A stretch of 64,000 nucleotides of DNA from Blasia pusilla (taxonomy: Eukaryota), in contig CM114271.1 of the NCBI GenBank assembly GCA_050084515.1, forward strand, positions 10,788,001 to 10,852,000, written 5' to 3'. Below the pieces are notes generated by a model. It was not told where the DNA came from and made no database searches. It saw only the letters and a list, made by a program, of their open reading frames with translations. Both the position numbers and the translations under genes were made by a program. Shown one piece after another: positions 1 to 30,373 of the stretch. How positions within the stretch are numbered: position 1 is the first letter of the stretch; every line of letters begins with the position of its first letter.

Positions 1-230
1 AACTCAGGATACCTCCGCATCAATCGACCAATATGTCGGGATGAGACTCTCGGGCCGTCTCATCTCGCTCCACATACACGTATCTCTCCGCACAAATACC
101 GCCCGCAACATCTGTGCCAAACCAAAGTGCTAATCCCACCAAAGAGATCTAACACACAAATGCCCTCCGGCGGATATCGCCATACAATGGGTGTAGTATC
201 CAAAGGAGATAACCTAATGGGCAGAAGTAG
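1..230 (-). pseudogene. N-terminal part of retrotransposon-embedded C5 cytosine methyltransferase (copy 1)
   Basis: TPIVWRYPPEGICVLDLFGGIST then, after a frameshift, YVYVERDETAR; same order as copy 2 at 14600-14800. Confidence 0.75.
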
Positions 231-599
231 GAGTCCGCCGTGGGGCCTCCTCTTCCTCGTGAGGTATAATGACCTCACACCAAGCCTCTGCACTAGGCGA
301 TCAGCCTCTTGCCGTAGTGCACCGCTTTGAACTCCAAAGTGGCACATCCAACGATGAGGATGCCATTGCTGCAAAAATAGGGACCTGCTCTACCTCCTCA
401 TGCGCAAGAGAATCCATAGCAGAAACATTACCCTCCAAAAAGTCTCTGGCCAAGTGACTACTCCACTAAAACCAGCCACAGATGCTAACATCTTGTTGGG
501 GAAGACCCTCCTGGTCGAGCCCCGTAAATAAATCTCACAGAACTTGGCTCATACGTCCATCCCGGATCGCCAACCAGGTAAGTAGAAGACGCTGTCTCA

Positions 600-3010: not shown

Positions 3011-5965
3011 GCCGATGCCGCACCACCACCAAATTACCCAAAAGACGTCGATGTCGCTCTACTATTGTAGCTCTACTAGCTATGGGTGTAGGCAATCTAA
3101 CCTCTCATCACTACAAGAAGCCTCCCACGGTCTACTAGTCATCACTCCAGCCTCACTACCGGTAGCACACAGGAGTAACACTACTCTGGAAATCAGCGTC
3201 AACCCTAACAATGGGCGCGTAAGCAAGAAGCACGATGGAGGGGATCCAAACACAGGAAGTCCAATGACAACCCTCCAACCGCAAATGGAAATCAAGGTAA
3301 CACAATCCGCCAAACGTGGTGCCCCCTGAATCCACAAAACCCACCACACAATTCTAACGCAATAGCTACTCCGCCGTGGGTCGATGACGTACTAGTCGAA
3401 CTCGTAGCACCTGAAAATATCACCTGCATGGAGAGGCTACACCGTACTATGCGCTAGAGGTACATCAACTAAAAACCTGAGATGCATAAAGCGCCTAACA
3501 CATCTCCGAACAGCACCAAATGAGCTACAACAGTCTGTACACTGGCCTAGTTAAGAACTCAGCAGTTAAGCGTCCTCCAGGCAGAATAGCCCAAAGATGG
3601 GTGACCAGTTATGCAAAACTCAAATCCCAAATCCTGAAAAAATTGCCTCACGCCCAAGCAAGCAAGCTTGCTTGCTTGCTCTTTGCTCCTTACTCCGCCT
3701 CTCACGCCCACTCGCCCCGAGCTACCACGAGTTGCCTCGAAGCCTCAAGCATGTCTCGAGCATTTCTCGGCCCTCGAGCCGAGAAATGCTCGAGACATGC
3801 CACGCTTCGCCATGCTTCGCTATGGAGAGAGGTCCAACCAGGGCGCCCCCAACGGGATAGGCATCTCCAACAATGAACGAGTCACCAACCAACCAGCCCC
3901 TCCGATCCGCTGTCCACCATAGCCAGACCTTGAGCTAGTCCGCAAAATTTCGATCAAAAATTACTTCACAAATACGTGACCAAAGTCAAATCTGTTTCAA
4001 TCAGAATTCAATTGACCACCATAGCTATCTCCCCACAAAAACTCAGCTAAAACCGAGCTCCGTACTCCGAGCTAAAAATCAGACAAACTTGCTGTCCATA
4101 CACCTCTAGAACCAAGAACTCGATAGCGCTTCCGCCAAGTTTCATGCACGCAGAAATCCGCAACGCTCCACGCACTCGAGCAAATAGCTTCACATGAGAT
4201 CACAATACAAGTAGCAATAGGAACCTCTCACCCGATCTGAATGAACTTCAACAGAGCTTCCGACTCCAAGCTCTCCACATCGTAAAAACGCATCGAACAT
4301 GAACCGAGAATCTTCAATGCTTGATAACTTCCAACTCCCTTGACGAAATCCGCGATCTACAGCGCGTTGGAAAGCTCTCAGCAAGGCGCTTCTTTCCCAA
4401 CCAACCACGCACCTGATTCACACCTCCAACATAGGCAACAAGCCCCGAACATCCACGGCTGAGTACACAATAAGCCCTAACCAGATCCTACTGATCTACA
4501 ATCGAAGCTACCATCGATCTACTCCAGTTCTTTGAGTGAAATCCATGAAAGACCTACTGTCATAAAACACGTTTACAATCACATACAATCGAGCCAAACC
4601 CACTCCACGATGGAAGAATCCAGGTCGAAGCTTGCGGGAAACACCATAGCCAAGAGCTCTACTCACTACCAAGGCTAACTCCCAACGCAACAGGCTCAAC
4701 TCAAAGAACTGAGTGTTCTTTGAGTGCACTCCACCTTATATCCTCCAACCTAAGAGCGGGCCCTATTGGGAAACTCACCCCCAACTGAGTAACCTCCAAC
4801 CCTATGTATGGAACCGCATCTCTTCCAAGCCACTACGGTCCTACATGAGGAATGACCTCTACTAGCACACTATACTCTACGACATAATCCGTATGGTCAT
4901 GACATATATTCAAGCTCACGAGACACTTGAACTGCTACATTTGGTACTCGCACTGAGTAGGGAAGCTTAATCTTGGTTAGCCAGTTAAACGCGATTATCT
5001 TAACTATGGTTAGTTAATCACAGTGAGTCTAACTCTAGAATATGGTTAAGATTAAGGTTAAGATTTCTTGTACATACCCTATATAATTGAGAAGGGGACC
5101 AGCCTCCACTCATTCTCTCATTGCAAAATTTTGTTCTCCATGGTGATGTGCGAGTGTGTGAGCCGTTTTCCACCAATTATGCTTCTTTAGCAATTTTGTA
5201 CACATGCTATCTCAAGTTCCTCCGACCCATCACTCTTTGGTGCAAATGTCTCGCTCCACGTGGTCATCGTCCAAGTGTCAAAACTCCTCACTCGAGCCCC
5301 ACAACGGCACATCTCTTTCATCGTCGTTGATTTTGATTTTGACTTTTGGGATGATAGGTTACCAAGAAGAGTGTAACCTGGTACGGAGAAGTTGATTGAG
5401 CTTTGTGAACTAGAAGGGAAGGTCTTTGTGATTGAAGATCGATCATCTATGCCTGGGAAGGTGACATAAGTGCCTTCCCACTCTTCTACTATTGCTATGT
5501 CAACCATAGCAGACTCATTGGAAGAGTATGTTGCTATAGATAATACTCAATCTGGTCTTGTTCGGGACAACTAGCCCCTTCCCTTGAGAGGGCTTCATTT
5601 GAGTCGGTTCTAATATGTGCAGCGGCTGATAAACAGTGGAAAGATGAATGGAGGAGATTTCAGAAGCGCGTAGAGAAGGAGGGATATAATGACCATAGTT
5701 GGAAAGTCAGAACATAGGATAAGGGGACTAAGATCTTTGGACATTTGGACGGGTTCCAAGTGTGATTCGCAACCCTCTGCTTCCCAAATCCGGTAAAATA
5801 TTGCAACAGAATTGAATGTGTTACAGAATTGGATCCATTGTGTCAGACAATATCACCCACCGAATTCATCTTGTCAGTAAAAATCTGTCAGGAGTATCTG
5901 TTTTCCTATTCACTATAAATTAAAAATTCTCATTCTCATTCTCCTCCCGTTGGAATCTTCTTGGA

Positions 5966-8900
5966 ATGGATAATTATGTTAAGCTCACTTGTGGCAGTCA
6001 TCTGGCGGCCCTTCCTCAATCAGAAATCATTCGACCCCAAGCTCGTGAGTCTTTCATAGCAGTGGATGAAAATTTTCTGTCTGTTCGATTTCTTCTCCAA
6101 ATTGAAACCATCTTTGTATCCAAAGATGTTAGGGTGGATGGTACGGAAGACATAATAGGTGAGACGGTCCAGCCAGTGATCTCAGACCGTAAAGTATGGA
6201 ATCTCCTATCTCTAGCAAATGGTCAATACAGAGTTTACGACCTGCCCCTGAATTCGTCTGTTTCCCAAGTAGACGGTCTAGAATTTCCTAGTGCTCCGAG
6301 CTCTACGTTTGCAACTCCAAGCTCTGCAGATCCGGCGTCGACTCCAACTTCGCACGCTCGTAATAATGTTGTTCATCCTGAAGAGATCCCGGATGTTATC
6401 AACCTCAATGGATCTGTCGGACACCAATCGGGCCCTCTGTCCGCCTACTCATTCCTCTTGCGAGTATCAGGCAATAGTTTGCTTTCGTCTCTGGCCTTGA
6501 AAATGTTCAAGCACATTCTTGTCGACAAGCTGCCGCCCACATACGATGGTAATTGCATTTTTGAGTTGCCTCCACTTGTTGCTCCTGCTCAAAAGAAGGA
6601 TGGAGGACGCCTGAAGGGTATGGACAGAAAGTCTGATTGTCATCGATGGTGCAGGCTTCAACGGACCAGTGCTTCCATTCCAGATGGTCCTTGGATTGTC
6701 TCCCACCGCCAATGCGTGGGAGCCTTGGAGTATAGAAGTCCAGCATGCTCGTATCTAGAGCGCAACGGGCGAGTCAATACGTCGCAATTCCCTCCCAAGA
6801 ATGCAGAAACTCCATACGAGGTTGGTGCCACCATACCGCCGGGAGGCCATCGATGTCCTCATTGTGAGGCATCGCCCTTCTGCGTTGGAGCGTGTCTTGC
6901 ATACATATTTTTCATTGTCCACGACTTGGGCTCCACGCCGAGTATACAAGGTGGCGGTTCATGTTGGCTCCCACACTCATCCTGTGACCGATGCAATTCA
7001 AAGACACATCAAGGAGGATGTGGCGAAGAAAGTAGCCGAGGTCTACAGAAACTCTCCGGGTTCAAAGCGCGGAGTGATCAAGCTCACAACGGCATCACAA
7101 ATTTGTGAACAATTGCTTGGAATCCCTGGACAGAGCGAGATCACGGCGGTTGAGGAGAAACAACTCTGGGAAAATCTCGCATTTCTCGATGATCCTGAAT
7201 GCTTCTGGAATTTGCTGCGTCAAATACGAGTTCTGGATGGAAAGATGGCCGAAATGGATGCCATCGCCAGAATCAAGGCCAACTCCAGATTTCCATTCAT
7301 TCAGAGGCGAGGGATCCAGGGCCTATGTCTTCAAAATCTCAACCATAGGTCCGTCGAGTTGCCTCGATCTTATAGATTGAATGAGGGAAGGGGAAGATCT
7401 TTACGGGAGCTGGGTAAGCTTTGATATTTGCTACAGAGTGCTGAACGGATGGTTGACGATGGGTGCTCACGTTTATGACCATGTGGAGAAGGGACTCAAA
7501 ACTATATTTGTCTGTGAAGTAAAGCAGAAGACGTTGGCAGTTTGAAGATGTGCTGGTTACTCTTATTGGAGGTGGTGAAGGAAAACAAAAGGCCACCTCC
7601 GGAAATTTATGGGTTCATGGCGGACAATGCATAACCTGGGTGGATTGCTATCCGGGAAGTGTTATGGGGTGGAGAGGTTCCACCGGAGAGGGAAAGGTCG
7701 GATGCTTTCCATTGGCATTGGATCAGTGACCCAGTACACCAAATCTTGCATCAAGGAGAATAAGAGGACAGAGCATGTCACTCTACTCCAACGCTGCAAG
7801 GACAGCAAAACCTTGAAGCAGGCCATGGAATGCCAGGAAGAACTTCATGGGTGGTGGAGGAAGCATGCGATTTAGGGGAAGTACAAAGAGTTGTGCTCTT
7901 GGTTGAGTTGGTGGACTGTACGTATGAGACAATGGGGAAACTTCATGCGGCAGGTGAGTTCACTATTTTGTCTTGTGAAGCTCACGTTGAGAATTGTTTG
8001 TAAAGATGTAGCTCAGGGTGAGAAGCGTGGGAACTATATGGATTTCAAACCCAAGAAACCAAGCAAGCTGTCGGATGCGACGGGTTGCCCGAGTGTGCAA
8101 CCCGACGGAAACTGACGGGTTGCCCGAGTGTGCAACCCGACGGAAACCGACGGGTTGCCCGAGGGTGCAACCCTATGGAAATCAACGGGTTGCATCCAGA
8201 TTTTTGGTGCAACCCGAGTGTGCAACCCGTCGGGACCCGACGGAAACCGACGGGTTGCCCGAGGGTGCAACCCTATGGAAACCAACGGGTTGCATCCAGA
8301 TTTTTTGTGCAACCCGAGTGTGCAACCCGTCGGGACCCGACGGGTCACAGAGTTGTTCATGGGATGCCTCGGCCTTGCAACCCGTCGGGTACTGACGGGT
8401 TGTAGTAGGTGGGTTTAAGGTTACAACACGTCGGTACCCGACGGGTCGCAGAGTCGTTCATGGGATGCCTCGGGCCTGCAACTCGTCTAGTTTCGACAGG
8501 TCGCTTATTTCTTTGACTCCTGAGTTATTTTCGTTCCCTTCTAACATTGCCGTCGTTGCAGGGATTGAACGTTCATGAAAATGCCCTTTGCCCCAACACA
8601 AGTGGAGTAGAAAGTGTTCATTCCTCCTGGAGGTCGTCACAAGCATGCCAACGAATTTCACTTGTGGAGGCATGCCAAAAAGACCAGGCAAGAGCAATGC
8701 TACAGTCTGCAGCATCCCATATCTTCCTCACAAAAGGCATAACAAAAGGAAAGGGGTCGTCGATCTACGAGCTCTATGTTCGGGCGGCTGTGAGATCTGG
8801 TGATGAAAAAATGTATGTGGAAGCCTTCAACCGGTGCGTAGCTCGAACTCCACTCGAGCAAGACGTACACATTGGTGGGGATATTCGTGGGCGGGTTTCA

Positions 8901-10051
8901 AGACGTCCCATACAGATGGTGGTAGAGCAGTCCGAGCGAGACTCTTGGAGACCAGATAAGTATCTTGACTTCAGGCAGGTGAAGAGGCAACATCGGTGAT
9001 TGATTTGGATGAGGAAATTACGCCGCCCAGGTATTCGGGGACCCCGGACCCGTCCCAAATCCGTGATGGAGTTACTTCTCCAAAATCAGTGAATGTTTTA
9101 TTTCAAAAGCCCTCCGTCGCTGGAAGTTCGCAACATCCTGTCACTGGGGTGGTTCAACAATATGGGATTCTGGTAATGGAGGTGGATTGCAACCTAAAAC
9201 GGTGGCATATATCTCGGAGCAACCCAGGACGTGGACCCACCTGCAGGGCAGAATCTGATGGCATTAGGAGAGCATGCGGAACTTTCCTAAATAAGAACTG
9301 TACAAGGATTGGACGACCACTGCTTGGGTTTTGGGGACTCAAAACCTTTGATCGTTTCACGAGGACCGGGGATCAATTGAAGTACTTCTTCTGCCCAAAT
9401 GAATCTTGCGCTTTCCGGAAGTCTTATCCGGCTGCCATTGGAGCTCCCGAGAATACCCCCACGATTTGGCCCATCGCCGCAGGTACGAACTGCACTCAAG
9501 ACGAAGTGGACAATCTCACAAGTTCCAGTTTCAGACTCGTACACGGGGGAAGTTCGGAGCATGTTCGCATTACACAGACCTTCACATTTCGTATTCAACC
9601 CAAGATTGATGTCAACATGTACCCGGAGAAGGTGGATGATCTCAATCCATTATTTTTGTTTGAGTCTAGAAATGGGGTGAAGAGAAACAGAATGTGCAGG
9701 CCAACGGTGGAGAGAGCAAAGCAAATTGCATCAGCTCGGGAGGGAAAAATGGAGATCATCGCCACGAAAGATGTCTTGAGTGGCAATGGAATAGGAAGGA
9801 TGTATTGGGTCAGGAACAACACTGTAAATTCAAGTGTCACAAGGGTGTATGTGGTGCACATCTGTTGGTTTCCCACATGTTCACGTGATGACTTTGTCCA
9901 AAGAGAGACAAGTGGCAAAAGGTATTTCCCTTGTAAGCACATGTACTATGTGTTGCTGGTAGTTTTAAGAGAGTCGGAGGTAGGAGTAGGAATCCACCAA
10001 CCAATTCTGTCCCTCAAAGAAGTTCGAAGTATTTTAAACAAACCACTTTGA
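5966..10051 (+). pseudogene. Mutator-family DDE transposase with N-terminal Cys/His zinc region and C-terminal SWIM finger; one intron (7954-8561); frameshifted
   Basis: WVSFDICYRV (D1), GFMAD (D2), DAFHW, NTSGVESVH (E), SWIM-like C..DDF..PCKHM; CAG|GTGAGT donor at 7954 and TTGCAG acceptor ending 8561. Confidence 0.8.
8075..8490. repeat. Intronic cluster of GCAACCCGTCGG / CCGACGGGTTGC palindrome units
   Basis: e.g. TGCAACCCGTCGGGACCCGACGGG at 8321 and TGCAACCCGTCGGGTACTGACGGGTTG at 8376, inside the transposase intron. Confidence 0.9.
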
Positions 10052-10532
10052 GGATGCAAAATGAGGTTTTAGATTGTACTTTTATTTTTTTCTCAACCTT
10101 CACTTTGATCTTGAACTCTATTCAGCCCCGGGCAAATGAAAGATTTTTTCCAGACCTTGGATGGAAAAAGTGATTGGTTCCACACTTATGATTCCACTGA
10201 TTTTTCAGTTTTCTAAATTTTGTGCAATTTGCAACTCGTCGGACTCAGAGGGGTTGCCAAAATATGGAAGAGGAAAAAAAAACTGTGGGACTGCTTAATA
10301 TATGAACAAAAAAGTGCAAAAAAATTTAAACAAAAATTTTCCTCTCTTCAACCCAACGGAAACTCTGTTCAAAAAAAATATCTATTGCGGTTGAAGGTAG
10401 TTTCCTCTCTCCTCTCTCCTCTCTTCCTCTCCTCTTACTGCACCTCGTTGGATCCCCCTAACTCTAGATAGAAAATATCACATCTCCTTGACAAAACCTA
10501 CTACCCTATACATATCCATCGTCCGATGGGAA

Positions 10533-11900
10533 CTATATCAAGAGGGGGGGGGGGGGAAGAGGGGTCAGACATGACATATGCCACCCTCGAGAACAACCAT
10601 CACATACCAACATGGTGGCTCCACCCCTCGTAGATTCGCACAACATACACTCAAGCCTGCACGTACCACTACTAAGCTCGGATCCAGTGTCCCATCCATG
10701 TTTGGAAGATGATATGGTGCACAATTGCGCACATGATCCTTCCAAACCATACCATCCCGTCCCTCCAACATGAGGACTCCGATCGGTAATACCTCACTCA
10801 CACGTAGGATCGTGCGCCTTGCAGTGACATCTAGCGTCGTGGGTGCCGCTTGCTGTAAATACACGTAATCTCCAAGATGAAACCTCCTCATCCCTGGACG
10901 ATAACCTCCTCCACGAATGGTTTCGTACCTCAATGTATCTCTATGTTGAGCAATAGCTAAGTTCTCAATGGCCATAGGCATTACTCTACGAAAAATCTCT
11001 GCCCTCTGAGAACATGCTTGTACCCACACATCTGGATCATCAAGATCTAACAGCTTCGCCATGCCACGTCCAATAGTTGTAGGTAAATTTGGCTCTCTCC
11101 CAAAGAGCAAAAAGTATGGTGAAAATGACGCCAAGGATGCCTGCCGACTAAAGCGATAATCCATAGCCAAACATGGCAAATGTAGGTCCCACTCCCTCAA
11201 CTATCCTCGCTGCAAGTCATACTTGCGCAATCCTCTCTTCACCGTATGTACTACTTTCTCCGCCGACCCATCCGCCTCAGGATGATCTCTGGATGTGGTG
11301 GGGTGATCTATCAACGCCTGATCACACAAGGCCTGAAACTCTCCCTTGAACTTGCTACCTTGGTCAGTCAACACCTCCGCCGGTGCACCAAAGTGACTAA
11401 GCACACGATCTAGAAATGCATAAGCTATTCCCTCGCTCGCCTTGTCCGGTAGTGCCACCAACTCTATCCACTTGGAGAAATGCTCCACCATGACCAACAC
11501 ATACATGTGATGACGCCTCGTCAATGGCAAAGGTCCCGCGAAGTCTAAACTCCACCAATAACCTAAGCCCATAATCGGCAAAGCATGTAACTGCAGAGTG
11601 GGAGCATTGAAGGATGCTCGCACTCTATCACATACCATACATCTCGCCACAAATTTTTGTACCCCAGTTTGCATGCCGCGCCACCATTACTGAATCTGGA
11701 GTAAGCTGTAAGTACGCTTTACTCCAAAAGGCCCAACTCCTCATGGGCATGTCGCACTACACGTGCTCACTGGGAAGGATGAGGTACCACTCATATCCTA
11801 CCATCTCCCCATACTCGCAAAATGTGAATCCCCTCCCACCTAAACCTCCTGGCTCTCTGTAGGATCCGATCCGGCTCCCTAGCACTCACTGTGCTCGCTA
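10533..11900 (-). pseudogene. Gypsy integrase with C-terminal PHD finger
   Basis: CMVC, WSLDFAGPLP, LTDQGSKF, HPEADGSAEK core; then CMLCESTRGGATMLVCDGCSRGWHMSCLTPL (PHD, C4HC3 start). Confidence 0.88.
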
Positions 11901-12149
11901 TGAAACCAGTGGGCAAGAACTCCACAACCTCCACGTCATCATGGATATCACAACCGCCTGTCGCCTTCTCACTAATCTCCAGATCGAAAGACTCCTCATC
12001 TCACCCCACCACTAGAGTCATCACCTGCGGCTGACCTACCATAGTCAACGAACAAAGATAGGCAGATGCATGCCAACCGGGCACTATCTCCTCATCATTC
12101 TCTCCGTGCCATCGAGCTCATGTGTCGTCTCTTTGACTCGGACATGGGT

Positions 12150-13600
12150 TACGACCCAACCCATCCGCACCCTGGTTCAGCCAAGCTGGCCCGTGAACCA
12201 CCTCAAACTCATACTCCTATGGTAATATAGCCCACCTGGCAAGCTTTCCCGCAAGCTTGTCGGACTCCATCAACCACCTCAATGGCTGATGATCAATGAT
12301 AAGTGTGAAAGGGTTGCCAAATAAATAGCACCTGAAAGATGCCATGTCCCACACTGTAGCCAAGGACTCTCCCTGGTAGGAGTTGTACTTTTCCTCTACA
12401 ATGTTGTTCGATTAGCTCGCGTAAGCAACAACCAACTCCTTCTCCTCGTGTTCCCTCTGAGTAAGCACTGCTCCTAGACCCAACATGCTCCAATCCGTAT
12501 TTAACTGGAATAGGCGACCCCTAACCGGTCTCTGTAAAATGGGTGAGGATGTCAACATGTCCTTGAGCTCCTGAAATGCTCACTCATGATCATCTCCCCA
12601 CAATCAAACCTGATCAAGTCTTATCAACAAGGTCAAAGACTTCAGGATCGCACTAAAACCCTTGACATACCGTCGATAGAAGTTTGCTAGTCCAAGAAAC
12701 GCTCGGGCTCAACTCACATCTATAGAGCGTGGAATCCGTGCAATAGCCTCCACCTTTGTTTGCTAAACACCTAACCCATTCGGGTATATGGTGTATCCCA
12801 AGTACTCAATCTGCTCCTGAAAGAATCTGCACTTGCCTGGATGTAACTTCAATCCATGTAACTACAATCGCTGAAACACCTCCTCTAGATGTTGCTCATG
12901 CTCCTCAACAGTGGAACTGAAGATAAGAATATCATCTATGTAACATTGTACAAATTCAAAGCTAGCCAAAATCCTATCCATCACTCTCTGAAACTGCGCA
13001 GGCGCGTTCTTCAACCCAAATGGTAAGAACCGCCACTGATACAAGCAATTTCTCCCAAACCAATCTATCCCCCAAAATGCTATCTTCTCCCTGTCCTCCA
13101 ACCTGATAGAAAGCTAATGATAGCCACCATGGAGATCTAAAGTATTGAAGATCTTTGCATGCCCTACCGCATCAAAGATCTCCTCAGGAGTAGGCATGGC
13201 GTATCGATCTAACATCGTTTTTCGATTCATAGGAGGGTAATCTCCACACATCCGCCTATCCGTCCAATTGCCATACATATCCTTCTTCGCCAACATGACT
13301 GTGGCAGATGCATACTCCCCATGTGATAACTCCACAAGTCATGCCTCCAACAAGTCCTGACTATTCTCTGAATCAAGGCTCGCTCCATATTATAATACCT
13401 GTAGGGTCGACAAAAGATCGGCATATCACTAGCCAACTCAATCCGTATCCCAGGACCCTTCAATATACCCAAGTCTTTCATACTGAAGGAAAAACAACTG
13501 ACGTGCCATCTCAAAAGCCTATGAACTCGCCGTTGCTCTCCTCTTATCAACTTGAGACCTATCACAGGCTCCCAAGTCTCCATCGTGACCTCACTCGGAG
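12150..13600 (-). pseudogene. Gypsy reverse transcriptase and RNase H
   Basis: RRMCGDY, TLDLHGGYH, WRFLPFGLKNAPAQFQRVMD, CYIDDILIFS; RNase H-like segment at ~12200-12520. Confidence 0.92.
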
Positions 13601-13829
13601 AGGACGCAACGCCCAGCGTTGATCGCTATGTAGCAATCCTAGCCACCTTCACAACAACCACTCCACTTTGACCTCCTACACCATGCTTCACTTCCAAAAA
13701 TTGAACATGTGGTGCTCTGGCTGCCTTCACACTCTCCGTTCGAACGACATCCCAAGAAGTCTACAGACCCTATAGGCAATGCTCCAACTGGTGGACATGA
13801 CAGCATGGATGACACTCGCATCCATCCCT

Positions 13830-14800
13830 GCTTAGCTATACGTAGGCTGACTATCCATGTGAGGCAGTTGAGGTCCATCGCCTGCCCCAACACGTGTCTC
13901 CGGGATGCCTCAGTCATACCTGGCACCGCCATAGTACTCGTAGCGAATCCCATGGCGCGCTCACGCTCATCTGCTGTAGGCTCCTCCAATGCTCGGATCA
14001 CCTCATCCCAAATCATGCTTGGCCCTCCCTGACAAAAGGCATGGGATGCTGGGAAGCTCACCAACGTAGGTAAGGCTTCCCTCAACTCCCCCATCCTATT
14101 GGCCATCGCCAACGGTGGTCTATCATCCTGTGTTATCACCTAAGATCGATGCCCTAAGCCCAAAATAGCATCCACTGTGAGATGTGGTGCTCTCTAGACT
14201 TCATCGTATGCTCGACTCAGTACCTCTGATGGTATCTGGTTCATCCACCACAGTTGTGGAGGATGGGCGCATGATCCAACTCTCGCTGCATCTAACAACA
14301 CAACAAGTCCCAACTAGAACCTCACTTGATGCACACTTGTCATCACATGTGCATGAGTCTCTTCCAAAAATGGAGAACGTGTCTGATGCTCTTGCAAGTA
14401 TCATACTACTTGTAGCATCTCCCAAAACATCCATGACCTTGGGTCCTGAAATCCAAACCCTCGGCCAGCTCATGAATGACCCTGACATGGCCATCCAACA
14501 ATCACCAAATGAATGGTCCCAACTCTATCCACATCGTGCGCCCCCACCAAAGAGATGTCGGCGGGTAGTGTATGTTGATATCCACGTACTGCTGATACCA
14601 AAAACAACTCAGGATACCTCTGGACCAATTTCGCCACGTGAAGTAATGATACTCATCGTGCGGTCTCATCTCTCTCTCCACATAAAGGTATTGATGCACC
14701 CATATGCCCGCCTACAATACTGCAGCCAATCCGGTGCTAATCCCTCCAAAGAGATCTAACACCCTAACACCCTCCTCTGGACACTGCCACACAATGGGTG
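13830..14800 (-). pseudogene. DNMT3-like C5 cytosine DNA methyltransferase domain embedded in pol between protease and RT
   Basis: Manual translation: motif I VLDLFGGIST, II YLYVER, IV LVIVGWPCQGHS*AG (PC at 14490-14485), V DPRSWMFWE, VIII LLDAARVGSCAHPPQLWW, IX ERERAMGF, X RRHVLGQAMDL. Motif VI (ENV) not seen. Confidence 0.88.
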
Positions 14801-15146
14801 TGATATCCAATGGGGTCAACCTCTCCACTCCAGAAGCCCAATCACCACCTGACTCTTGCTGCTCTGGGATAAAGGCATGACTCCACGCGTGCCTCACGAG
14901 GTCGTCGACACTCCTCTATAGCTCTCGAGTCGTATCCCACAATGGTGAAGAGATCTCGCCAATATGGGAAGAGACACCCGCCATGGCCTGTCTCTCCGTG
15001 GGACTATCTGCTATTGGGACATCCTCCGCATGTGCGTTCCCCTCCAACAACTCTCCTGGCTAGCTAACACTACTTGTGAAAGCTGCCAACTTGGTCACAG
15101 ACTCATCTCGTACTTGACCACCTCCTCCCGTAAACTGCACGGGTAA

Positions 15147-15650
15147 CTATCTCATCCGCCCGTCACCAGACTGCCATCCTGGCCAATAAGCAACGGTCTC
15201 CTCCCAGAAGTCAAGGATGAATCCTAGGGGATATAACACTATACTCCCCACCAACACATCATACGACTCAACTGATGTCGTGATCACAGGTGTGCGTACC
15301 ATAGCACTATCCATTGCATGCTCTGGCTGGATTCTGACAACTATCTCTTGTCGAGTCATATACTACGTGGGTGACATGCCCCCAATCGAGATTTGTATCT
15401 AGAAGGGACAAGGCTCAATGTCGGCCTTCCGTAACCCCAACGCTAAACACGCCGCCTTCCCTAACATCAAGGGCTGCACTCCCGAATCAAGTAGGACGCA
15501 CTATGGGTGGTATACTGTCCCCGTCGGACTAACCAAGCGAAATACTCCAGCTTGGTTATCGAGTAACACTACGCCAGGTGTTATCACTACTCGCTTTATG
15601 GTTGGGCGAGCTGGCATATTTACCAACTTCGCCGCTGCTACATGCCATGA
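15147..15650 (-). pseudogene. Gypsy aspartic protease
   Basis: CVLLDSGVQPLMLGKAAC at ~15500-15447; SYDVLVGSIVLYPLGFILDFWEE. Confidence 0.8.
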
Positions 15651-16299
15651 CTATGTGGGGGACATCCCGAGCACCTGCTCCGAGGGCAACTCCACCACCT
15701 CCTCAACTACCTCTCAACAAGAGGCAGTCACCTCTCCACGGTCACACAACGTGGCGGCCAGCTGGAACACCTCAACAGGTCCAACTCCCAACGTCTCCAA
15801 CTCTATGGCGGAAAATAGTGGAGTCTGGCTTACTCTGGTGGCCACCTCCAACACTATGGTTGACACTGACTCCACTTGAGCCGGCATAGGAGTTATCACT
15901 CCAACTCCTCGTGACGTCGACGCACTTGCCTCACTTGTAGGCACCGCTGATCGTCAAGGCACCATTAATGGTGTGTGTAGTGCCTCCGACAATACCAATG
16001 ATTGTGGAACCCTGGCCTGCTGCCCATTAATCCCCTCTAGTGGGTCAATCTCAACTCCACCTCTCGATCGCTCAGTGCCTCTTGTAGCACCCTGAGTCAC
16101 CACTTGAGCAGCCTCAACCTGAGCTGCACTATACATAAACCCCATACTAGCAAGACCCTCATCCGGGTCAGGGTAAGAGGTAGAAGCTGGGGCCACACTA
16201 GCTGCTCGTGGATCCGTGCCTTCCCTGAGGTACATCATCGTCATGGCAACAATCCTCTACTCCAACTGATCGATGCGTGAGAGAAGTGCCGGCTCTAGT

Positions 16300-18900
16300 G
16301 CTCCTACTCCATCTCCTCTGGTTGGTGGTGGTCCTCTACCACCATGTCCAGGAATAACTCCCCGACCTCTTCAGGACGACCGCCTCCACGCCCTTGGCTT
16401 GGCTCTGGACGTGCCTCTCGACGAAGGTCAAAACATCTATTCCCAGTGTGACCATATCTGTGGCAATAGTAACACTGGTACTATGGTGGGGCCATCCTCT
16501 ATGGCTTTTGAGCAATCGAAGGTGCTCGTGGTCCTTCCCCATGTTGTGCGCAGTCTCTCTGCCTATGGGCCCCTCCACACGTCCAAAAAGACAACATCGA
16601 TCCCTGTTGGGCAACATATGTAGGTACGGGTCGTTGCCTCATAGGCTCATGGTACCCACCCGGGTCTCTGGGCACACTAGCCCGCTCCCATGGTATTGGT
16701 GCTTGCTGTGGCACTTGTAGGGTCACCGTCACTCGTAGACCCGTTGACTCTCGAGAAGATCGAGCGGTCACTACGTGCTCCTCACTCATGTTGAGCTCAA
16801 TATGCTCAGACAACTCGAAGACCACCTTCAATGTGGGCTTCGCTGTGTGAATCAACACCGCATCTCGGACTCTCCTCCATAGTTCTCGGTCCAGAACCCC
16901 GTACCAATATTGGTCTAACTGCGCCTTAGTCACTCCAGAAGTAGCAATGATAACCCTCCTCATGCGCACAAATGCCTCTCTCAGACTCTCACCTGATGGT
17001 CGCTAAAAATCCTGTAGACTCTTCAACTTTTCGGTGCGTATGCCTTGGTAGCTCTTCCCCAAATGTCGGAAGAACTCCACTATGGTACTAAAGTTGGGTG
17101 GCCCTCTACCACCAGAGGTCTCTGCCACATCACCTGTCTCTCTGCCCTCCTCTCCATCTAGTCTCTGGGCTGATGGTGTGCGTGATACCCAAAATTTTGT
17201 ACTTTTAGAGATTTATACATTTTGATTCAAGGAATACAGATTCTATGAAGTGAAGATTGTACATATAAGATTTTTTTAGATATTATGTTTGTGAATTGGA
17301 AGAATAAGTAATATTGAAATGGATCACAAAGCTCCTAGGATAATACAGAGAGGTGAAAAATCAAGGATTTTCCTTAGAGGAGATGGAAATACAGAAACGA
17401 AGTCTAAAGACTAAGAGCGACGCTTGAAAAAGACAACGAAGCCTTATTAAGAACTTGTTAATGGAGTGATTCACTCTTGAACGAAGCATAATGAAGACGA
17501 AGAGGAAGAAGTACTTTGCTCTTCAGCAAAGCAGGAAGAACGAATCACTTGGAACAAGAGCAAAGAATGCAGCGCTTTGTCCTCAGGAAGAGCTTCGTCC
17601 TCAAGGGAAGAAGAAGAAGTCTACACTTAGCAACGAAGCGAAGCTAAGACTCAAAGTGATTTCAAGCGGCACACTGTTAGAGTAGTTAGGTTAGGAAGAG
17701 GCATGACTTTTTGGACCAGATAGGAAGTTAGGACCGTTACGCCCAACGGATTCATAGTGATCATAGGAAAAGATAAGAGAACCGAAGATCAAGGTAGTTA
17801 CAAAATCTCAATAGACAATAGATTCGTAAGAGACGCTTCAGATCTTTGGACCTACTAATGCCTTGGAAGATATTTAAGAAGCATGAAAGTAGCTATCCTC
17901 ATCATTCTTTCACGAAGTCCTTATGTTGTAGGAATGGTTCGAGCAAGGGAGTAGTACCCTCTCGAGCTTGTATAACACTTTGAAGCTTTCTGATTCTTGA
18001 TGGAGTAGTAAAGCACTCATTTCTTCATTCCGATGTGCGATGCATATGTTTGAGAATTCTTATTGGGTCTGCAGAGTGAAGAGTGAATCAGGAGAACACT
18101 TTCATCATTAGAATAATCAACATTGAGTCGTAAGAAATCTGTTCGACAGAGAGTAACCTGCCCAGACGGATTGAGTTCCGAAAGTAGGAGAAGCCAGCTT
18201 CTTGTTGAGGTCTCTTTGAGGTTCTTTGATGTTGAGTGAAGATCTACCTGAGCGTGAATTCGATTCCATTGGAGAGAATCGAGGAAAGAAATCTTGGTAC
18301 TAAGAGAAAGGAGAATACACTGATAAGTGATTGAATCCGAATTGTAAACACTTAACTACAACTATTGCAAGATAAATGCCATCTTGAACTCTCTTTCCAC
18401 ATAATCGTGATCCTCGTGGGGATTGAACTTATTAAATTAATGTAAAAAGATCAATTCGTAAAATTCTTATACATTACACGGTGGGTCTCTCTCCTCTCAC
18501 GATCCCATCATATGCCTCGTGACCACTAGTGAATACATACTCTGGAGCCCAATACATCCTCCAGGCATCGATCTCTACTGAATACAATGATCGAAACTCC
18601 ATATAGTCATCCATCGGAGGACCCTCCAAGTGTTGGAACAACCCCTTTCATGCCATGAAAGGGTTGAACTGTGTCGGGGTCCGTATCTCTTGGAAGTCGC
18701 ACCACATGTCAAACTTCGGGATAAAATCATCTAAGTCGATAGTGCCCAGTGCACCCTAGAAATGACGCATACCCCAATGGCCCATATCGTCCATCTCTTG
18801 ACAAGTGACATTGCCTCCGTCTGCGATCTCGTCACCAGACCCAGTGTCTAGTGATGACGATCTAGCCACGGATGGATGTCGAGGTAGGTCCTCACTCATA
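16300..18900 (-). pseudogene. Gypsy gag, split by a solo LTR
   Basis: Homologous to copy-1 gag; SFWTCGGAHRQRDC degenerate knuckle in ORF 16499-16969. Confidence 0.75.
17181..18478 (+). mobile_element. Solo LTR (~1.3 kb) inserted in Gypsy gag; same family as 29080-30373
   Basis: (C/T)GTGATAC...CATTACA ends; long similarity to 29080-30373; imperfect TSD TGGTG/CGGTG if the start is 17179. Strand arbitrary. Confidence 0.8.
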
Positions 18901-21299
18901 ACCCCTCGGTATCTCACTCCACTCCATGTCACACCACTACTACTGCTCGCACTACCCCATTCGTCCGAACCCTAGAAGAATGCCGTGATGACAACCCTCT
19001 CTCACCCGCTCAAGCACTCAGACTCACCAAGAGTCTCCCACACTCCTCACTAGCTCACAGACGCTAATGGTAATCCCGTGACAACACACTTGGCCTCACG
19101 CACACTCAACACTCACCATGAGCCTCCCAACTAACTCACCTAAACCACTGACACTCTTGAGTCATACATGTGACCCGTGCTCGGAAACCGCCGTATATTC
19201 ACAGACATGCTACACATGCATGGAGACTACACTTGTCACCATTACTACATCCATCTAGCACCAACAACTACCCGACACCTAGCACTCTCAATCACATAAG
19301 ACAAGTGCGGGAAAAGGGACTTGAATGGGTTACCTGATCACGCCCTACAACCTACGACACTGTCGACATCCACTCCTCCATGTGATATGACAACCTTCGC
19401 CACACGTCACCCTTCTCGACCAACACGTCAAACCTCCCGTCAGCATTGGCGTGTATGTCTCCATCAAAATCCTTGCAAACACAATCGATGACGGACTACC
19501 AAGTCGGCCCCCAATCGACCCGCAATAACTGCCAAACTCTCATTGTGAATCCCACCATGCTCGCCAAACACCAAGTCTCACAAACTCTACCACTACGTAA
19601 CTCAACTCAACCATGTCCAACCCCCTCAACCTGGTAAACTGACCTGACCAAGTGTGGATCCACTCCTACCACATTTGTCTGTGCTCTACCCCTTCCGCCC
19701 ATGCCTGTACCGTGTCGGCCCTACCACGTTCCCATCCAACCTAAACTCTTGCACGCTGCCCTATGCACCCAAGGGTCCTTAAATGCGTGGGGGGGGGGCA
19801 TGGAGGGCCCGCGCCCCAATGCCCTCAACCCGTCCTTTCCTCCTTCTCTCCCATTCGCACCCTGCGGCGACCCTACATCTGGGCTCCCCACTCCTGCTCT
19901 TGCGGCTCCGACTCCCGCTCCCGCGGCTCCAAATCCTGGCTCTCGACTTGCTAGCGACCTAAAATTATTGGCTACACCCTAGCATTGTCGCGACCCTCAT
20001 AACCAAACAACACCAAATACGCGCCAAGCGAAACATCAGAACTCAAAGGAACTCACTCCGCGAGGTTTGCGCTTTGGAGAGGCGTTTGGAAGAGTCTCTT
20101 GGAAAAGTCTAAGAGACGAAACGTGGAACAGAGTTGTGCGTTTCATGCGTTAGTGGTCGCGACCAGGAAACCTAGACCAAACGCGAGCTGAGACTTGAGA
20201 TGAGTTGAGTCTCGGAGGTTGGTTGCCAAAGAGGTGAGAACCAGTTTGGAACACGGCTAGCGTTTGGGAGAATCTGACTGTGTTTAGGACCATAACGTTG
20301 AGCTCCGAGATGCGTTCGGGACAAGTAAGGGCGCGTTGGAAAGCTGATCTTGAGACGCTTCCAACGCACCAAAGATCTCAGCAAACGCATAAGTACAGGC
20401 TGAGATATTGGCCGAAAACGATTCAGAGAGCAATCGGGTTGAGGGCCATGGAGGGGCCCGGGTGTCTTTCCCTAAATGTAGGGGGCCCCCGGAGATCCCC
20501 AGAAGTACTAGTAAGGGGAGTACCTTCTCTGAGATGTCTCGGGAAACGAAACCCCACTTTGGGCGCCAAACGGCGTTTCAGAGGCACGGGATGAAACGGG
20601 AGTTTGGCGCGGAAACCCGAAATCCAAACCTGATCCAAGGGAGTGGACTTTGTGTGCCACACTTGATTCCAACCCGAGATTCACCGATGCGAGTCTTGGT
20701 GAGGAACTCATTGGATGTTCATCGGACAGCTTGGAACCGCTAGGCGCGAGACGCCGCTTTCAGGTTCCCGAACCGACGAAAGAAAGTCTCGGTCCCAAGT
20801 CTTTCGAGACTTGCCCGTGTTGGAAACCGCGAAACTAGGAAGGTTGAGCTTGAAGAGAGAGTCCGAGACGAGAACTCGGAAAGTAATCCCGCTGATTGAT
20901 CCAAGACCCGACTAACCGGCGCGTGTTTGGATGCAGATCAGCGTTGAGAGCGTGACTCATCAACGCGACGCTCGCGAACAAACAAGATTAACGTTCAAGG
21001 AGAGTAGGTGCACGACAAGCATGGTCGCCCTCACGGCGGCTGTGGTGCATTTCCCGATCAAGCTCTCATTCTGCTTTCCTGATACACCTGTTCATGAACT
21101 CCCAACGTCACACTTCCCACTACACTCTGCCGTTCTCTCTCATCGGTTTGCACCAGCAAAGTCCATGAAAAATGGCCTGCGCTTTGGCGCACGGCCTTCC
21201 GAACATAAAAATGACTAAAAAATGCTAACCAGCATCTCCAGGGGCTCCCCACCAAGGCAGCTCGCTTGCCTACCTACAAAAAAAAAAATTTCCACCATC

Positions 21300-21800
21300 C
21301 CCCTGACATCTTTCTCATGTAAAAATAAAGAGTAGTAAAAATGGCACACCCGCCCTAAAACTCCACTCCTCAATCTACATCGGCATATCGAGCCTCATCC
21401 ACCTTGCGCTATCAAGGAATCGGAACGCTAGCACCCTGGTACTATCTCACACACATACAAGAGAGGTGCTCCAAGTGCCCAACATGAGAAAGATGGCTTG
21501 GGAAAGCCATCTTCCTCCCTTATGTGGGGTTGGGAAGAGCCAAAAGGCTCTTCCCCTAAAAATAGCTATCCTCCTGGTTACCTGCACGCACAGGTTACCA
21601 GGGGCGGATGACCTGCTCAACAAGTCACCTGGCTGTGAAAGACCCCAACAAGAAAGTTGTCAAAATTGACGTTCCCGACACAATGGACCTATCTTCAACC
21701 TCGTCCGACACCGCGGGAAAAAGTTACACTCAAGACAGTCCGTTGGCTCTTATGTCGTATCCACGATAGTTCTCGGCCTATCGGCTACTCAGATGTGACA
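21300..21800 (-). repeat. 5' LTR of Gypsy copy 2 (~0.5 kb)
   Basis: Reverse complement aligns by eye with 23447-23730 and 24431-24590; inner boundary approximate. Confidence 0.7.
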
Positions 21801-23446
21801 ATAGTCCAACGGTTGAATGTGGATGTGGGGGATGACAACTCAGTCTTCTCTATTGTACCATCTCCTAGTACTTCTAAGTATGCAAATAAGTCATTCCTAT
21901 TTGGGGTAAGATGGACAATGTGTGGGAATTTGCACACTAAGTTGTGTCCTAGAAAGCTCACTTTGGAGCATAATTTGAGGACACACTTGGTCAGCCGTGA
22001 TCATTTGGCGCATTAGAGACCAAAGAGATATCTAAGGATATTTTGGTGAGGTCTGGTAAATGAGGAAGGCCTAGGAAACTTAATCCAAGGGACCAACATT
22101 CCTTGAAATTTTCAATTTTGAAATTCTTCAAGGAGGATGGGTACCAAGCAGGGAGCAGTATATGGAGAGGTGGGTTGGTAGAGATTGATCCTGGCCATAG
22201 CCTGGTTTGTTGGGGCTTATGGGATGAAAAGTTCAAGTGGAAAGGAGTAGAAATGAATGTTAAGGGCATGTTGGATGATCAGCGTGGTGGCAATGCGTGG
22301 GATTGTGAGCTAACCACTATTGTGCAGGTTTTTGATCCATCTACAAATATTGTGGTAAGTATACGAGGTTGTTTTAGACACAAATTGTGTTGTAGGTTAT
22401 CGCTTAATGGAATAGGCTTTACGAATATGACATGCACTAAGTCTCATTCTATTAAGCGTGAGGATGATTTTCATGGCCAAATCTACGGGGAAACATAAGC
22501 TTCAGTGCATAGAGGGGAGAGGGATACAAAAAGTGGATTGAGATTGGATTATTTGACCAACCATCAGCTCAAGGAACAAGTCCACCATCTGAACTCAACA
22601 TAGAGAAAAGAACATTGGCTTCTTGCACAACAAGCTCAAAAAGTGTGTGCCTTGAGTACTAGAAAACAAAAATTAAAAGAATTGTTAGGAGTAGCTGCAA
22701 ATAGGAAGGATTTGAAACCCTTTCTTAGGAATGTAGTGAATGGGCAAAAGAATGGTGCTTTCGATAGGAAGCAGATATTGTGGGATTTTCTCCAAGATGT
22801 AGCTCGTAACTTACAAAGATATGCTAAGGGTGCCCATTACAGCAAGCGAACAAAGGCCATAGCTCACGCAATGCTACATTTTGGTGGTCGACAAGTGGCT
22901 CATTGTTTTACTAGGAACTTAGTTGGGCGAGGCTTTAAGACCCTTAAATGTGACAGGGCTAAACTCCCTCCTTTTTTTGTTGGGCTAAGATGTGCAATTT
23001 TCAAGGAAGTAGTCAGAGTATTAGCTGAATCAAAGTGAGTCCTTGGTATTGAGAGAGATGTACCAATCATGTTTGCCGAAGATGAATCTCGAATCAAAGA
23101 AAGGCCATGATGAGTGCAACTGTGGAATGCTATATCTTTTCATTGTGCATATGTATGATTGAGTTAAACATTAAAATTGAATTAAAAATCTACATATTCA
23201 CAATCATGAGACTAAATATCATTTTTTTCTGTTGATATCAGATGGGAGGCCAAATATGACAGTTTGATTGGTTTTTGTGGGCTAGTAGAACATCAAAAAT
23301 GCTCATTTGGACTTGAAGTACTTGTTGGGGATGGTAATGATGGCTATGAAATGATCGTAAGTACTTTTGGGGAGTACACAAAGGGGCAATATGCTAGAGT
23401 AATCATTGTGAATCATTTATATGAATCTATGTCCAAATTGGCACTA

Positions 23447-24744
23447 TGCTACATCTAAGTAGCTGATAGGTAGGGATCTATCACGGTGACAACATAGAGA
23501 GCCAACGGACTATCTTGAGTGTAACTTCGTCCTAAGGTGTTGGATGGGGTTGAAGATAGTTTCGTTGAGTTAGGAACGTCATTTCCGATGACTGTCCTAT
23601 TGGGGTCTTTCACATTCGGATGACTTGTTCAGCAGGTCACCCGCCTTTCGTAACATGTCCGCGCAGGTTATCAGGAGGGTTTTCATTTTTAGGAGAAAAG
23701 CCTTTTGGCTCTAACCACACCTATATATAGGAGAGAGATCAAGGTTGCACGTAAATAGACAAGTCCGGACATGTCCTCGGACATGCCAAGCCCGCACCCA
23801 AGCCCACCTCGGAGCCTGCCTTGGAGCCCGCCACCTAGATCCAAGCTGATAGAGCCCGCACCCGTTGTGTGGCCCATAGAACGGACAGGTGCGGGCTATG
23901 GCGGGCTCAAGGCGGGTTGGGCGCGGGCTCCAATCGGGTAGACACGGGCTCAAAGCGGACAGACACGGGCTCAAAGCGGGCAGGCGGGCGGGCTCGAGGC
24001 AGGCAGGTGGTGAGCGGACACGTGCGGGCTTGAGGTAGACTGATTGGGCGCGAGCTTTGGACGGACACGTGTGGGCTACCAATGGGTAGACACGGGCTCA
24101 AGGTGGGCAGGGTGGGGGCTCCAAGCGGGTAGCCACGGGCTCAAGGGCCTGAAAAATTTGGTCCCTTTGACCAAGATTTGGTTCGGCAGACCAAATTTTT
24201 TGCACATGCGGGCTCAAGGCAGGTCTCAAGCCCTCACCGAGGGCTCGCAAGGCGGGTTCGAGGCCTGCATCGAGCCCGCCCCAAGCCGGGCTGCGGGACA
24301 CGCAACAACTACGGGCGGGCTCGGATGGGGGCTCGGGTGCGGGCCCTGGGTACCCAAGCCCGCACGGACATGTTTGTCCATAGGATGGAGATAATTCTGC
24401 GGACACAGATTTTGTCCATGTGCAACCTTGAGAGGGATGGCTTTCTCAAGCCATCTTTCTCATGTTGGGCTGTTGCAACACCATTCTTGTTTGTGTGTGT
24501 GAGTTAGGACCACGGTGTTAGCGTCCGAATTCCCTAACAGCACAGGGTGGACGAGGCTAGATATGTCGATGTAGATTAAGGAGTGACATTTTTAATCTTA
24601 TTTTTGTTGTGTGATCTCAATGTATATGTGTGAGTTGATTTTTGTACTTGTGTGGATCTACCCGTGTGTTGGGGAAGATCGAGGTTGTGTGATGTGGATG
24701 TGACCAGCGATATGTATTGTGTAGCCATGTGTATGCACACATCA
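23447..24744 (+). mobile_element. Solo LTR related to the Gypsy copy 2 LTR
   Basis: TG...CA ends, ACTA(TG) duplicated at 23443 and 24745, TATA-like CCTATATATAGG at ~23720; removal restores the host frame. Confidence 0.8.
23740..24430. mobile_element. hAT-type non-autonomous element/MITE (691 bp) with GGGCTC/GAGCCC repeats
   Basis: Perfect 11-bp TIR CAAGGTTGCAC...GTGCAACCTTG; 8-bp TSD AGAGAGAT/AGAGGGAT; absent from the related LTR at 21300-21800. Confidence 0.85.
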
Positions 24745-29079: not shown

Positions 29080-30373
29080 TGTGATACTCACAATTTTTTA
29101 CTTTTAAAGATTTACATCTTTTTATTCAAAGAAGACTTGTATATACACTATGATTTTGATATTATGGTTATTATTATATATTATTATGGAGAAGAATGAG
29201 TAAGATTAAAGTGAATCACGAAGCTCCAAGGACAAGGCAGAGAGATAGAAAATCAAGGATTTTCTTGAGAGGAGAGGAGAATAAAATAACGAAGTCTAAA
29301 GACCCAGCAAGAATCTTCGAAAGGACAACGAAGCTCTATTAAGAACTTTTCTATGAAGTGCTTCGCTCCTGAACGAAGCATGAAGCATAAAGAAGAAGAG
29401 AAAGAAGTACTTTGCTTATGAACAAAGCACGAAGAACGAAGCACCTAGAACAAGAACAAAGAATGGAGCGCTTCGTCTTCAGATCAGGAGAAAGAGCTTC
29501 GTCCTCAAGCGAAGCGAAAGAGGTCCAGACTTAGCAGCGAAGCGAAGCTAAGATTGATAGTGATTTCAAGCGACACATAGTTAGAACAGTTAGAATAGGA
29601 AAAGGCGCAACTCTTTGTATCAGATAGGTAGTTATGACAGTTTTGTTTTGCGGATTCATAGGGATCTTAGGAAAAGAGAAGAGTACCATAGATCTAGGTA
29701 GTTACAAATGTTGAAGAGACACCTGCTTCATCAAGAACGCTTCGAATCTTTGAAACACTCCTACTTCAGAGAGTATTTAAGAAACATGAAAGTAGCTATC
29801 ATCATCATTCTTTCACGAAGTCCTTCTGCTGTAGGAATGGTCCGAGCAAGGGAGTAGTACCCTCTTGAGCTTGTATAACACTTTGAAGCTTTCTCATTCT
29901 TGATGGAGTAGTAAAGCACTCATTCCTTCATTCTGATGTGCGATGCTTATGTCTGAGTATTCTTTTTGGGTCTGTAGAGTGAAGAGTGAATCAGACAAAC
30001 CTTCCTCATCAATGGAATAATCAACATGGAGTTGTAGGAAATCTGTTTGACAGAGAGTAGCCTGCCGAGACGGATTGAGTTCCGACAGTAGGAGAAGCCA
30101 ACTTTCTTGTTGAGATCTCTGTGAGGTTTCTTGATGTCGAGAGGAAATTTAGCTGAGCGTGCTATCAACTCCACTAGAGAGAATTGAGAAAAGAAACCTT
30201 GGTACTAAGAAAGATCCGAAGATATTGATAAGATATTGAATCTAAATTATTCACACCTAAATACAACTATTACAACAGAATTATAATTTGGAACTCTCTT
30301 TTCATCAAACAATGATCCTCTTGGGGATCGAACTCAGTAAACGACTGCAAAATTGAAACTCTTATACATTACA
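29080..30373 (+). mobile_element. Solo LTR (1294 bp) inside the CACTA element
   Basis: TGTGAT...ATTACA ends, TSD ATGCT/ATGCC, paralogous to 17181-18478. Strand arbitrary. Confidence 0.88.

Follow-up and report, generated by a model that had tools for sequence, protein, structure and literature searches.

What is a cytosine methyltransferase doing in the middle of a retrotransposon polyprotein, and does it belong there? The question is raised by a 64,000-nucleotide stretch of DNA from Blasia pusilla (GenBank assembly GCA_050084515.1, contig CM114271.1, positions 10,788,001 to 10,852,000 of the forward strand), the whole of which we refer to as the window and in whose coordinates all positions are given. 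On its minus strand the window holds a decayed Ty3/Gypsy element, copy 1, together with part of a second, diverged copy, copy 2, at its very start. We conclude, with good confidence, that these belong to a Ty3/Gypsy family in which an unpermuted DNMT3-type C5 methyltransferase lies between the protease and the reverse transcriptase and a PHD finger follows the integrase, and that this arrangement is a trait of the family.

Stop-to-stop reading frames, Pfam matches and tblastn alignments place the domains of copy 1 on the minus strand in the order gag, protease, C5 methyltransferase, reverse transcriptase, RNase H, integrase and PHD finger. The parts of the two copies are as follows.

10533 to 18773, minus strand: coding remnant of copy 1, from gag to PHD finger (tblastn of Marchantia, Sphagnum and metagenome polyproteins).
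18492 to 18773, minus strand: N-terminal part of gag, separated from the remainder by the nested insertion (P0165 residues 10-104, 60% identity, E 1e-29).
17178 to 18480, no strand assigned: nested insertion of 1.3 kb, A+T-rich, within gag (second copy at 29081-30373, 78.7% identity).
16382 to 17158, minus strand: gag with a degenerate CCHC knuckle, its first Cys replaced (P0165 residues 108-371, tblastn).
About 15248 to 15503, minus strand: aspartic protease region, assigned only on homology (tblastn to P0178, which matches Pfam Asp_protease_2 over residues 774-859).
13843 to 14759, minus strand: DNMT3-type C5 cytosine methyltransferase, motifs I to X (PF00145; 58% identity to Marchantia P0165 residues 911-1223).
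12862 to 13356, minus strand: reverse transcriptase (RVT_1, 9e-17, at 13113-12862; tblastn of P0171; YIDD at 12942-12931).
12003 to 12600, minus strand: RNase H region, limits approximate (tblastn to P0171, whose residues 974-1098 match RT_RNaseH).
10691 to 11734, minus strand: integrase, zinc-binding part and DDE core (rve 1.4e-14, Integrase_H2C2 7e-4; P0192 residues 1078-1425, 53% identity).
10536 to 10649, minus strand: PHD finger after the integrase (PF00628, 1.9e-7).
3 to 2819, minus strand: copy 2, which has gag, protease and the first part of the methyltransferase, motif I included, before the window edge truncates it (tblastn of P0165, P0168, P0170 and P0196).

An initial annotation, made from the letters of the DNA, had called a Gypsy element with a methyltransferase between protease and reverse transcriptase, and Pfam and tblastn bear out both the identity and the placement (protease at about 15503-15248, RVT_1 at 13113-12862). 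A Ty3/Gypsy Pol is indicated by RVT_1, rve and Integrase_H2C2 matches in the window itself and by an RT_RNaseH match in relatives that align to it. As for gag, copy 2 carries the CCHC sequence CWTCGGDHVRKFC, and the corresponding site of copy 1 has another residue in place of the first Cys; the Pfam zf-CCHC model matched the gag fragment of neither copy and was called in the relative P0178. A regular-expression search of the protease region of copy 1 found no D[ST]G active-site motif left.

Inspection of the methyltransferase region revealed the expected motifs in canonical order, split between two frames, with motifs I and II in one and motifs IV to X in the other, which has five internal stops. 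The interval 13830-14800, to which the domain had been assigned, covers it almost exactly.

14759 to 14730, minus strand: motif I, the S-adenosylmethionine-binding loop, LDLFGGISTG.
14496 to 14473, minus strand: motif IV, GWPCQGHS, with the catalytic Cys and a stop directly after (Pfam match over P0001 residues 46-84).
14347 to 14376, minus strand: lesion site of motif VI, with 8 codons missing where relatives have ENV (alignments including P0259).
14298 to 14239, minus strand: motif VIII region, LLDAARVGSCAHPPQLWWMN, in which Pro and Gln take the place of the two RxR arginines.
13974 to 13945, minus strand: motif IX, ERERAMGF.
13893 to 13867, minus strand: motif X, LGQAMDLN.

The order I, IV, VI, VIII, IX, X is unpermuted both in the window, where motif VI has been lost, and in intact relatives; DRM methyltransferases, unlike the DNMT3 type, have a permuted motif order. 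The deletion of motif VI suspected in the initial annotation is real, appearing as an 8-codon gap against the closest intact relatives. The catalytic set of copy 1 is accordingly incomplete, with the Cys present, ENV missing, RxR reading PxQ and six in-frame stops across the region, which also contains one frame break near 14670; at that break copy 1 disagrees in length with 643 of 804 genomic reads.

Despite this damage, the domain is recognizable when read through. The translation of 14652-13639 with in-frame stops written as X (P0001) scores 24.5 bits against PF00145, the check that had been suggested (cut-off 22, E 2.2e-5), and in a HMMER search of 1.84 billion representatives it matches 1146 proteins at E<=1e-3, 454 at E<=1e-10 and 66 at E<=1e-30. 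Taken alone, none of the four short open fragments of the methyltransferase matches a Pfam methylase model, nor does the N-terminal piece P0002, and the ESM Atlas returned generic methylase clusters only. Among solved structures P0001 by itself matched M.HhaI alone (E 0.012), so recognition of a DNMT3 likeness needed intact relatives and a profile.

These intact relatives point to DNMT3. The Marchantia polyprotein P0165 matches DNMT3A at 1.7e-8, M.HaeIII at 1e-3 and DRM (4onj) at 2.6e-3, and 25 of its 27 solved-structure matches are DNMT3A, 3B or 3C. A profile built from 20 domains (A1) sharpens the ranking, with DNMT3A at 2.7e-18 (69 bits) and 3C and 3B at about 1e-17, followed after the DNMT3 group by DRM (4e-9, 39 bits) and M.HhaI (5e-9, 38.6 bits). 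An AlphaFold2 model of the closest intact relative, P0259, computed from a 37-row alignment, reached a predicted local distance difference test score (pLDDT) of 90.9 and a predicted template-modelling score (pTM) of 0.89; in a Foldseek comparison with the Protein Data Bank, all of the matches listed, to rank 48, are DNMT3A, 3B or 3C, the best being 6w89_A (E 4.6e-19, template-modelling score 0.84 by target length). Among solved structures, the sequence profile of the family and the predicted fold of P0259 are thus both closest to DNMT3A/B/C, as the initial annotation had proposed on motifs. Across 270 domain rows, 249 of 251 filled cells hold the catalytic Cys and 265 of 269 the motif VI Glu; of the two motif VIII arginines, one stands in 260 of 269 and the other in 257 of 267. 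Conservation is similar in the two architectural classes described below. This conservation speaks for a working enzyme in the family, whatever its substrate.

Is the methyltransferase a property of the family or an accident of one copy? Residues 1-932 of P0165 align by tblastn to window positions 2819-6, and an open reading frame of copy 2 at 389-60 (minus strand) contains VLDLFGGIST; over 220 bases copy 2 is 72.7% identical in DNA to copy 1 (14606-14822, blastn). The second copy with motif I at the same position, on which the claim of a family trait had been founded, is therefore present. Relatives show the same layout: Marchantia P0171 (MARPO_0091s0058) has DNMT, then reverse transcriptase, then RNase H; P0178 has CCHC, protease and DNMT; and P0192 has DNMT, reverse transcriptase, RNase H and integrase. 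When 361 collected proteins were scanned with home-made domain models of one to three seed sequences each, 62 had the methyltransferase after the protease or before the reverse transcriptase (class A, including Marchantia and Sphagnum fallax gene models), 120 had it after reverse transcriptase/RNase H or directly before the integrase (class B), and in 176 only the methyltransferase was seen. Summed genomic read depth is about 750-1150 over the methyltransferase bins, about 830-990 over gag and up to about 1670 over the reverse transcriptase; since depth over the methyltransferase is like that over gag, most copies of the family carry the segment. Absence of the segment from other members, which would have spoken against a family trait, is not what was found.

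The named relatives of the window domain, at 50-60% identity, are gene models from Marchantia polymorpha, M. paleacea, Riccia sorocarpa, Calypogeia fissa, Sphagnum fallax and S. troendelagicum; alignments with bryophyte proteins cover some 300 residues at 58-60% identity, and at least 14 Marchantia polymorpha gene models have the methyltransferase domain. Gene models of Marchantia and Sphagnum fallax also include the neighboring protease, reverse transcriptase or integrase, and the Riccia, Calypogeia and S. troendelagicum domains fall in the same methyltransferase clade as the window domain. The earlier suggestion that such a domain is not standard in land-plant Gypsy elements calls for some qualification: no paper was found reporting it, but public gene models with the domain come from four species of liverwort and two of Sphagnum. 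Klebsormidium relatives and host DNMT3 proteins were absent from the named matches of our word-index searches and cluster look-ups.

Trees of the methyltransferase domain follow the two domain orders. A quick tree, built with IQ-TREE from 77 of the 270 rows (the named rows, with Marchantia thinned to four, plus a random 24 of class A, 30 of class B and 8 unclassified, five long-branch rows having been removed beforehand), places the window domain in a 13-row clade with Calypogeia, Marchantia and Sphagnum that has a Shimodaira-Hasegawa-like approximate likelihood-ratio test (SH-aLRT) support of 98. Classes A and B form the two sides of one branch of this unrooted tree (SH-aLRT 99) with one label change; FastTree on all 270 rows gave an SH-like support of 96 and two label changes, with one of 115 class-B rows on the class-A side. 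Class B comprises green-algal and metagenome polyproteins with the order reverse transcriptase, RNase H, DNMT, integrase, PHD, including gene models from Chlamydomonas eustigma, Haematococcus lacustris and Monoraphidium neglectum; P0016, P0022, P0028, P0031, P0220 and P0247 are examples. Class B resembles the window element in its methyltransferase (about 30-37% identity), its Gypsy-type reverse transcriptase, RNase H and integrase and its terminal PHD finger, which is common to both classes, and differs in placing the methyltransferase between RNase H and integrase rather than between protease and reverse transcriptase. A full-text search, with supplementary files outside its scope, found no paper in which the class-B order is described for green algae. 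Cymbomonas tetramitiformis P0252, in which only the methyltransferase was seen and whose order is unclassified, also groups with class B on the tree. A 455-residue 'DNA cytosine methyltransferase', P0260, from a record labelled as a Candidatus Obscuribacterales metagenome-assembled genome, is nested among class-A domains beside P0185 (protease-DNMT); its contig is probably a misbinned piece of a eukaryotic transposon.

The family is abundant and transcribed. At 85% likeness or more, 74,328 of 12,434,590 genomic records of the same species label (0.60%) match window positions 10000-19500, of which 176 are at least 99% alike copy 1 and 2708 are 95-99% alike; with so few near-identical reads, the family amounts to tens to hundreds of copy-equivalents per copy of the locus. 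In three RNA runs, 1578, 1658 and 1656 records match the element, about 0.015% of each, mostly at less than 95% likeness. The strand bias of these RNA reads exceeds 20:1 in most bins, with the first mate nearly always on the plus strand (for example, 49 vs 0.9), and is opposite over the nested 1.3 kb insertion; this reversal indicates that the libraries are stranded and that the signal is not DNA carry-over.

Copy 1 itself is a dead relic. Its aligned pieces contain 36 in-frame stops, and its frame runs -3, -1, -3, -2, -3, -2, -1, -3, a course of seven changes of which one falls across the nested insertion. Because of these stops and frame breaks, the missing motif VI and the changed RxR of motif VIII, copy 1 is unable to methylate. 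Comparison of its translation with the PHD fingers of relatives shows that the first six zinc ligands are kept and the last Cys pair is missing. Examination of 569 genomic reads that join 17177 to 18481, skipping 1303 bases, indicates that the 1.3 kb insertion is private to copy 1; about 4 bases are shared at the joint of this nested repeat with gag. At sites with at least 15% differing reads, the window has A/T where reads have G/C at 555 and the reverse at 326, and transitions make up 881 of the 1261 sites at which genomic reads differ from copy 1, an excess toward A/T that fits C-to-T decay of this copy. CpG depletion was considered as a mark of the element and discarded as not specific, the element having an observed/expected ratio of 0.61 and the window as a whole one of 0.65.

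Copy 1 is truncated on its 3' side, at about 10564-10423; below 10564 the RNA reads from other copies diverge, and a different repeat of 4.6 kb starts at 10422, adjoining the cut end. On the 5' side, family read depth continues to at least about 19190. The 4.6 kb repeat occurs twice in the window, at 5824-10422 and, in opposite orientation, at 33796-38387 (88-89% identity); its open reading frames of 394, 360 and, in the second copy, 537 residues match no Pfam family, and one of them contains a CxC...CxH pattern that by eye resembles a SWIM finger, as a candidate.

In intact relatives the DNMT3-like domain, with its catalytic residues conserved, is encoded within Pol. What might it do in copies that are intact? 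We propose tentatively, and with somewhat less than even expectation, that the methyltransferase would be made as part of Pol, would travel with the reverse transcriptase and the integrase, and would methylate the element's new DNA, its own double-stranded complementary DNA (cDNA), or the site of insertion. By analogy, the PHD finger would be an integration-targeting reader and would guide the integrase to one given state of the histone H3 tail, the role of the chromodomain in chromoviruses, which are Gypsy elements with a chromodomain on the integrase. Chromoviruses and the window element are alike in bearing a histone-reader module at the integrase C-terminus, a chromodomain in the former and a PHD finger in the latter. 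PHD fingers are common accessory domains of Chlamydomonas transposons (PMC8557442, cited from part of its text). Self-methylation of DNMT-bearing elements was proposed by de Mendoza et al., 2018 (PMC5890265, likewise cited here and below from part of its text), in whose yeast assay DIRS-borne DNMT3 domains methylated CG.

Several points weigh against this reading, some touching what the element is and others what its methyltransferase would do. In the same yeast assay, for a Gypsy-DNMT3 domain the one such test in print, the Klebsormidium Gypsy-DNMT3 domain gave no methylation, a result that its authors call inconclusive because human DNMT3B also failed there (PMC5890265). Methylation by the domain of the present family is a prediction from sequence and fold, and the putative DNMT3 assignment took solved structures as its sole references. 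Neither long terminal repeats nor inverted repeats flanking the element were found by blastn self-comparison, a repeat search or a sensitive blastn of 18480-24000 against 2800-10700, and a tRNA-Met-type primer-binding pattern gave 6 matches with 5.3 expected, none of them in place; these searches thus found neither the ends of the element nor the class of its repeats. As so few genomic reads are at least 99% alike copy 1 and the RNA reads are mostly less than 95% alike, the expression is that of the family, not of copy 1. Finally, assignment of the RNA to the minus strand, the sense strand of the element, assumes the usual library protocol.

The alternative that survives best, although we regard it as unlikely, is that selection has kept the domain without its methylating element DNA, because it acts on RNA or serves as a DNA-binding or tethering module in the preintegration complex. 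DNMT2, for one, acts on tRNA. Both the failure of KnitGypsy-Dnmt3, the Klebsormidium domain, to methylate DNA in yeast and the suggestion of RNA methylation for a LINE-borne DNMT (PMC5890265) favor such a role; against it, the residues of DNA-cytosine catalysis counted above are almost invariant, among solved structures the fold comes closest to the DNA enzymes DNMT3A/B/C and not to DNMT2, and the yeast null carries the caveat of the DNMT3B failure. Far less probable is that the segment is a one-off piece of a host DNMT3 gene, or of another element, nested by chance. Copy 1 does hold an unrelated insertion at 17178-18480 and does adjoin another repeat at 10422, yet a one-off nesting is contradicted by copy 2, which at 72.7% identity has the same layout, by an order common to 62 of 361 relatives including Marchantia and Sphagnum fallax, by genomic read depth that does not drop over the segment, and by a methyltransferase tree on which the architecture class changes once (SH-aLRT 99). 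Weakest of all, and close to negligible, is chance resemblance in decayed sequence, which could point to the failure of all four open fragments to match Pfam methylase models and is contradicted by the above-cut-off PF00145 match of the read-through frame, the 66 proteins at E<=1e-30 and the 58-60% identity to bryophyte proteins over about 300 residues. An assembly artefact was likewise rejected.

A DNMT3-type methyltransferase carried as a family trait of a Gypsy element thus remains the reading we prefer, and it has precedents. Retrotransposons equipped with a DNMT, the kind of enzyme by which hosts silence them, are known from dinoflagellates and one charophyte. KnitGypsy-Dnmt3 of Klebsormidium nitens resembles the window element in having an unpermuted DNMT3-type domain inside the Gypsy Pol open reading frame, key catalytic residues conserved in the family and a streptophyte host, and its copies carry plant-type silencing marks (PMC5890265). 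The two differ in host, a charophyte there and, for the relatives found here, liverworts and Sphagnum mosses; in abundance, with 'fewer copies' in Klebsormidium and about 0.6% of genomic reads here; and in repeats, DIRS-like ones being described for KnitGypsy-Dnmt3 (PMC5890265), whereas neither a DIRS-like nor any other terminal-repeat arrangement was found around the truncated copy 1. SymbioDIRS-Dnmt3 of Symbiodinium likewise has a DNMT3-type domain in a retrotransposon Pol, with two domain orders coexisting, and it methylates CG de novo in yeast; it differs in being a DIRS element with a tyrosine recombinase rather than a DDE integrase, in a dinoflagellate host, the authors holding that its domain was acquired independently (PMC5890265). 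The EpiLTRs of Cymbomonas and Euglena (10.64898/2026.05.21.726589, a preprint cited from part of its text), which are LTR elements, likewise unite a C5 methyltransferase with a chromatin reader. Their DNMT, however, is reported to be sister to DNMT4 and to lie at the 3' end of pol, accompanied by an adenine methyltransferase and a chromodomain, whereas the window element has a DNMT3-like domain upstream of the reverse transcriptase, no adenine methyltransferase and a PHD finger in place of the chromodomain.

The same preprint lists 'streptophytes (Gypsy-DNMT3)' (10.64898/2026.05.21.726589), and our full-text search, in which supplementary files were again outside the scope, found no paper naming such elements in bryophytes. 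The Gypsy-DNMT3 kind is thus already known; what may be new is that it extends to land plants and comes in two domain orders. Gypsy-DNMT3 elements occur also in land plants, namely in four liverworts and two Sphagnum mosses, going by public gene models, and in the host of the window, whose element has bryophyte nearest relatives. There they can be abundant and transcribed, and a sister class with another order exists in green algae. A broader picture, which we consider doubtful though worth stating, is that of one old Gypsy superfamily spanning chlorophytes to bryophytes, which would pair an active DNMT3-type writer with a PHD reader on the integrase and would have reached its two orders through one rearrangement. 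At least one land plant would have it as a major and transcribed part of its genome, at about 0.6% of reads. Intact members would place 5-methylcytosine on their own cDNA or at their insertion sites, and gene exchange, in whichever direction, may have taken place between the host DNMT3 of early land plants and the DNMT3 of transposons. Marchantia, a transformable model with good methylome tools, would allow the function of a transposon-borne DNMT to be tested directly, if its elements are intact. There is also a practical consequence for annotation, in that several of the gene models are labelled 'DNA (cytosine-5)-methyltransferase' or hypothetical and so can inflate host DNMT3 counts in bryophyte surveys.

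Elsewhere in the window, Rfam and tRNA scans of its full length found nothing. A plant-type CACTA transposase, marking a second kind of transposon in the window, lies at 45997-46827 (Pfam Transposase_21, E 7e-59), followed by a weak DUF4216 match, below cut-off, at 47999-48670; together with the nearest relatives of the Gypsy element, it hints at a plant host, probably of bryophyte grade. Blastn self-comparison revealed tandem-repeat blocks at 38737-39268, 40866-41334 and 62139-63499, with offsets of about 67-134, 64 and 389 bases, respectively. A 321-residue open frame at 31548-32513 has a weak PTCB-BRCT match (23.2 bits, cut-off 22) and is possibly a host gene fragment.

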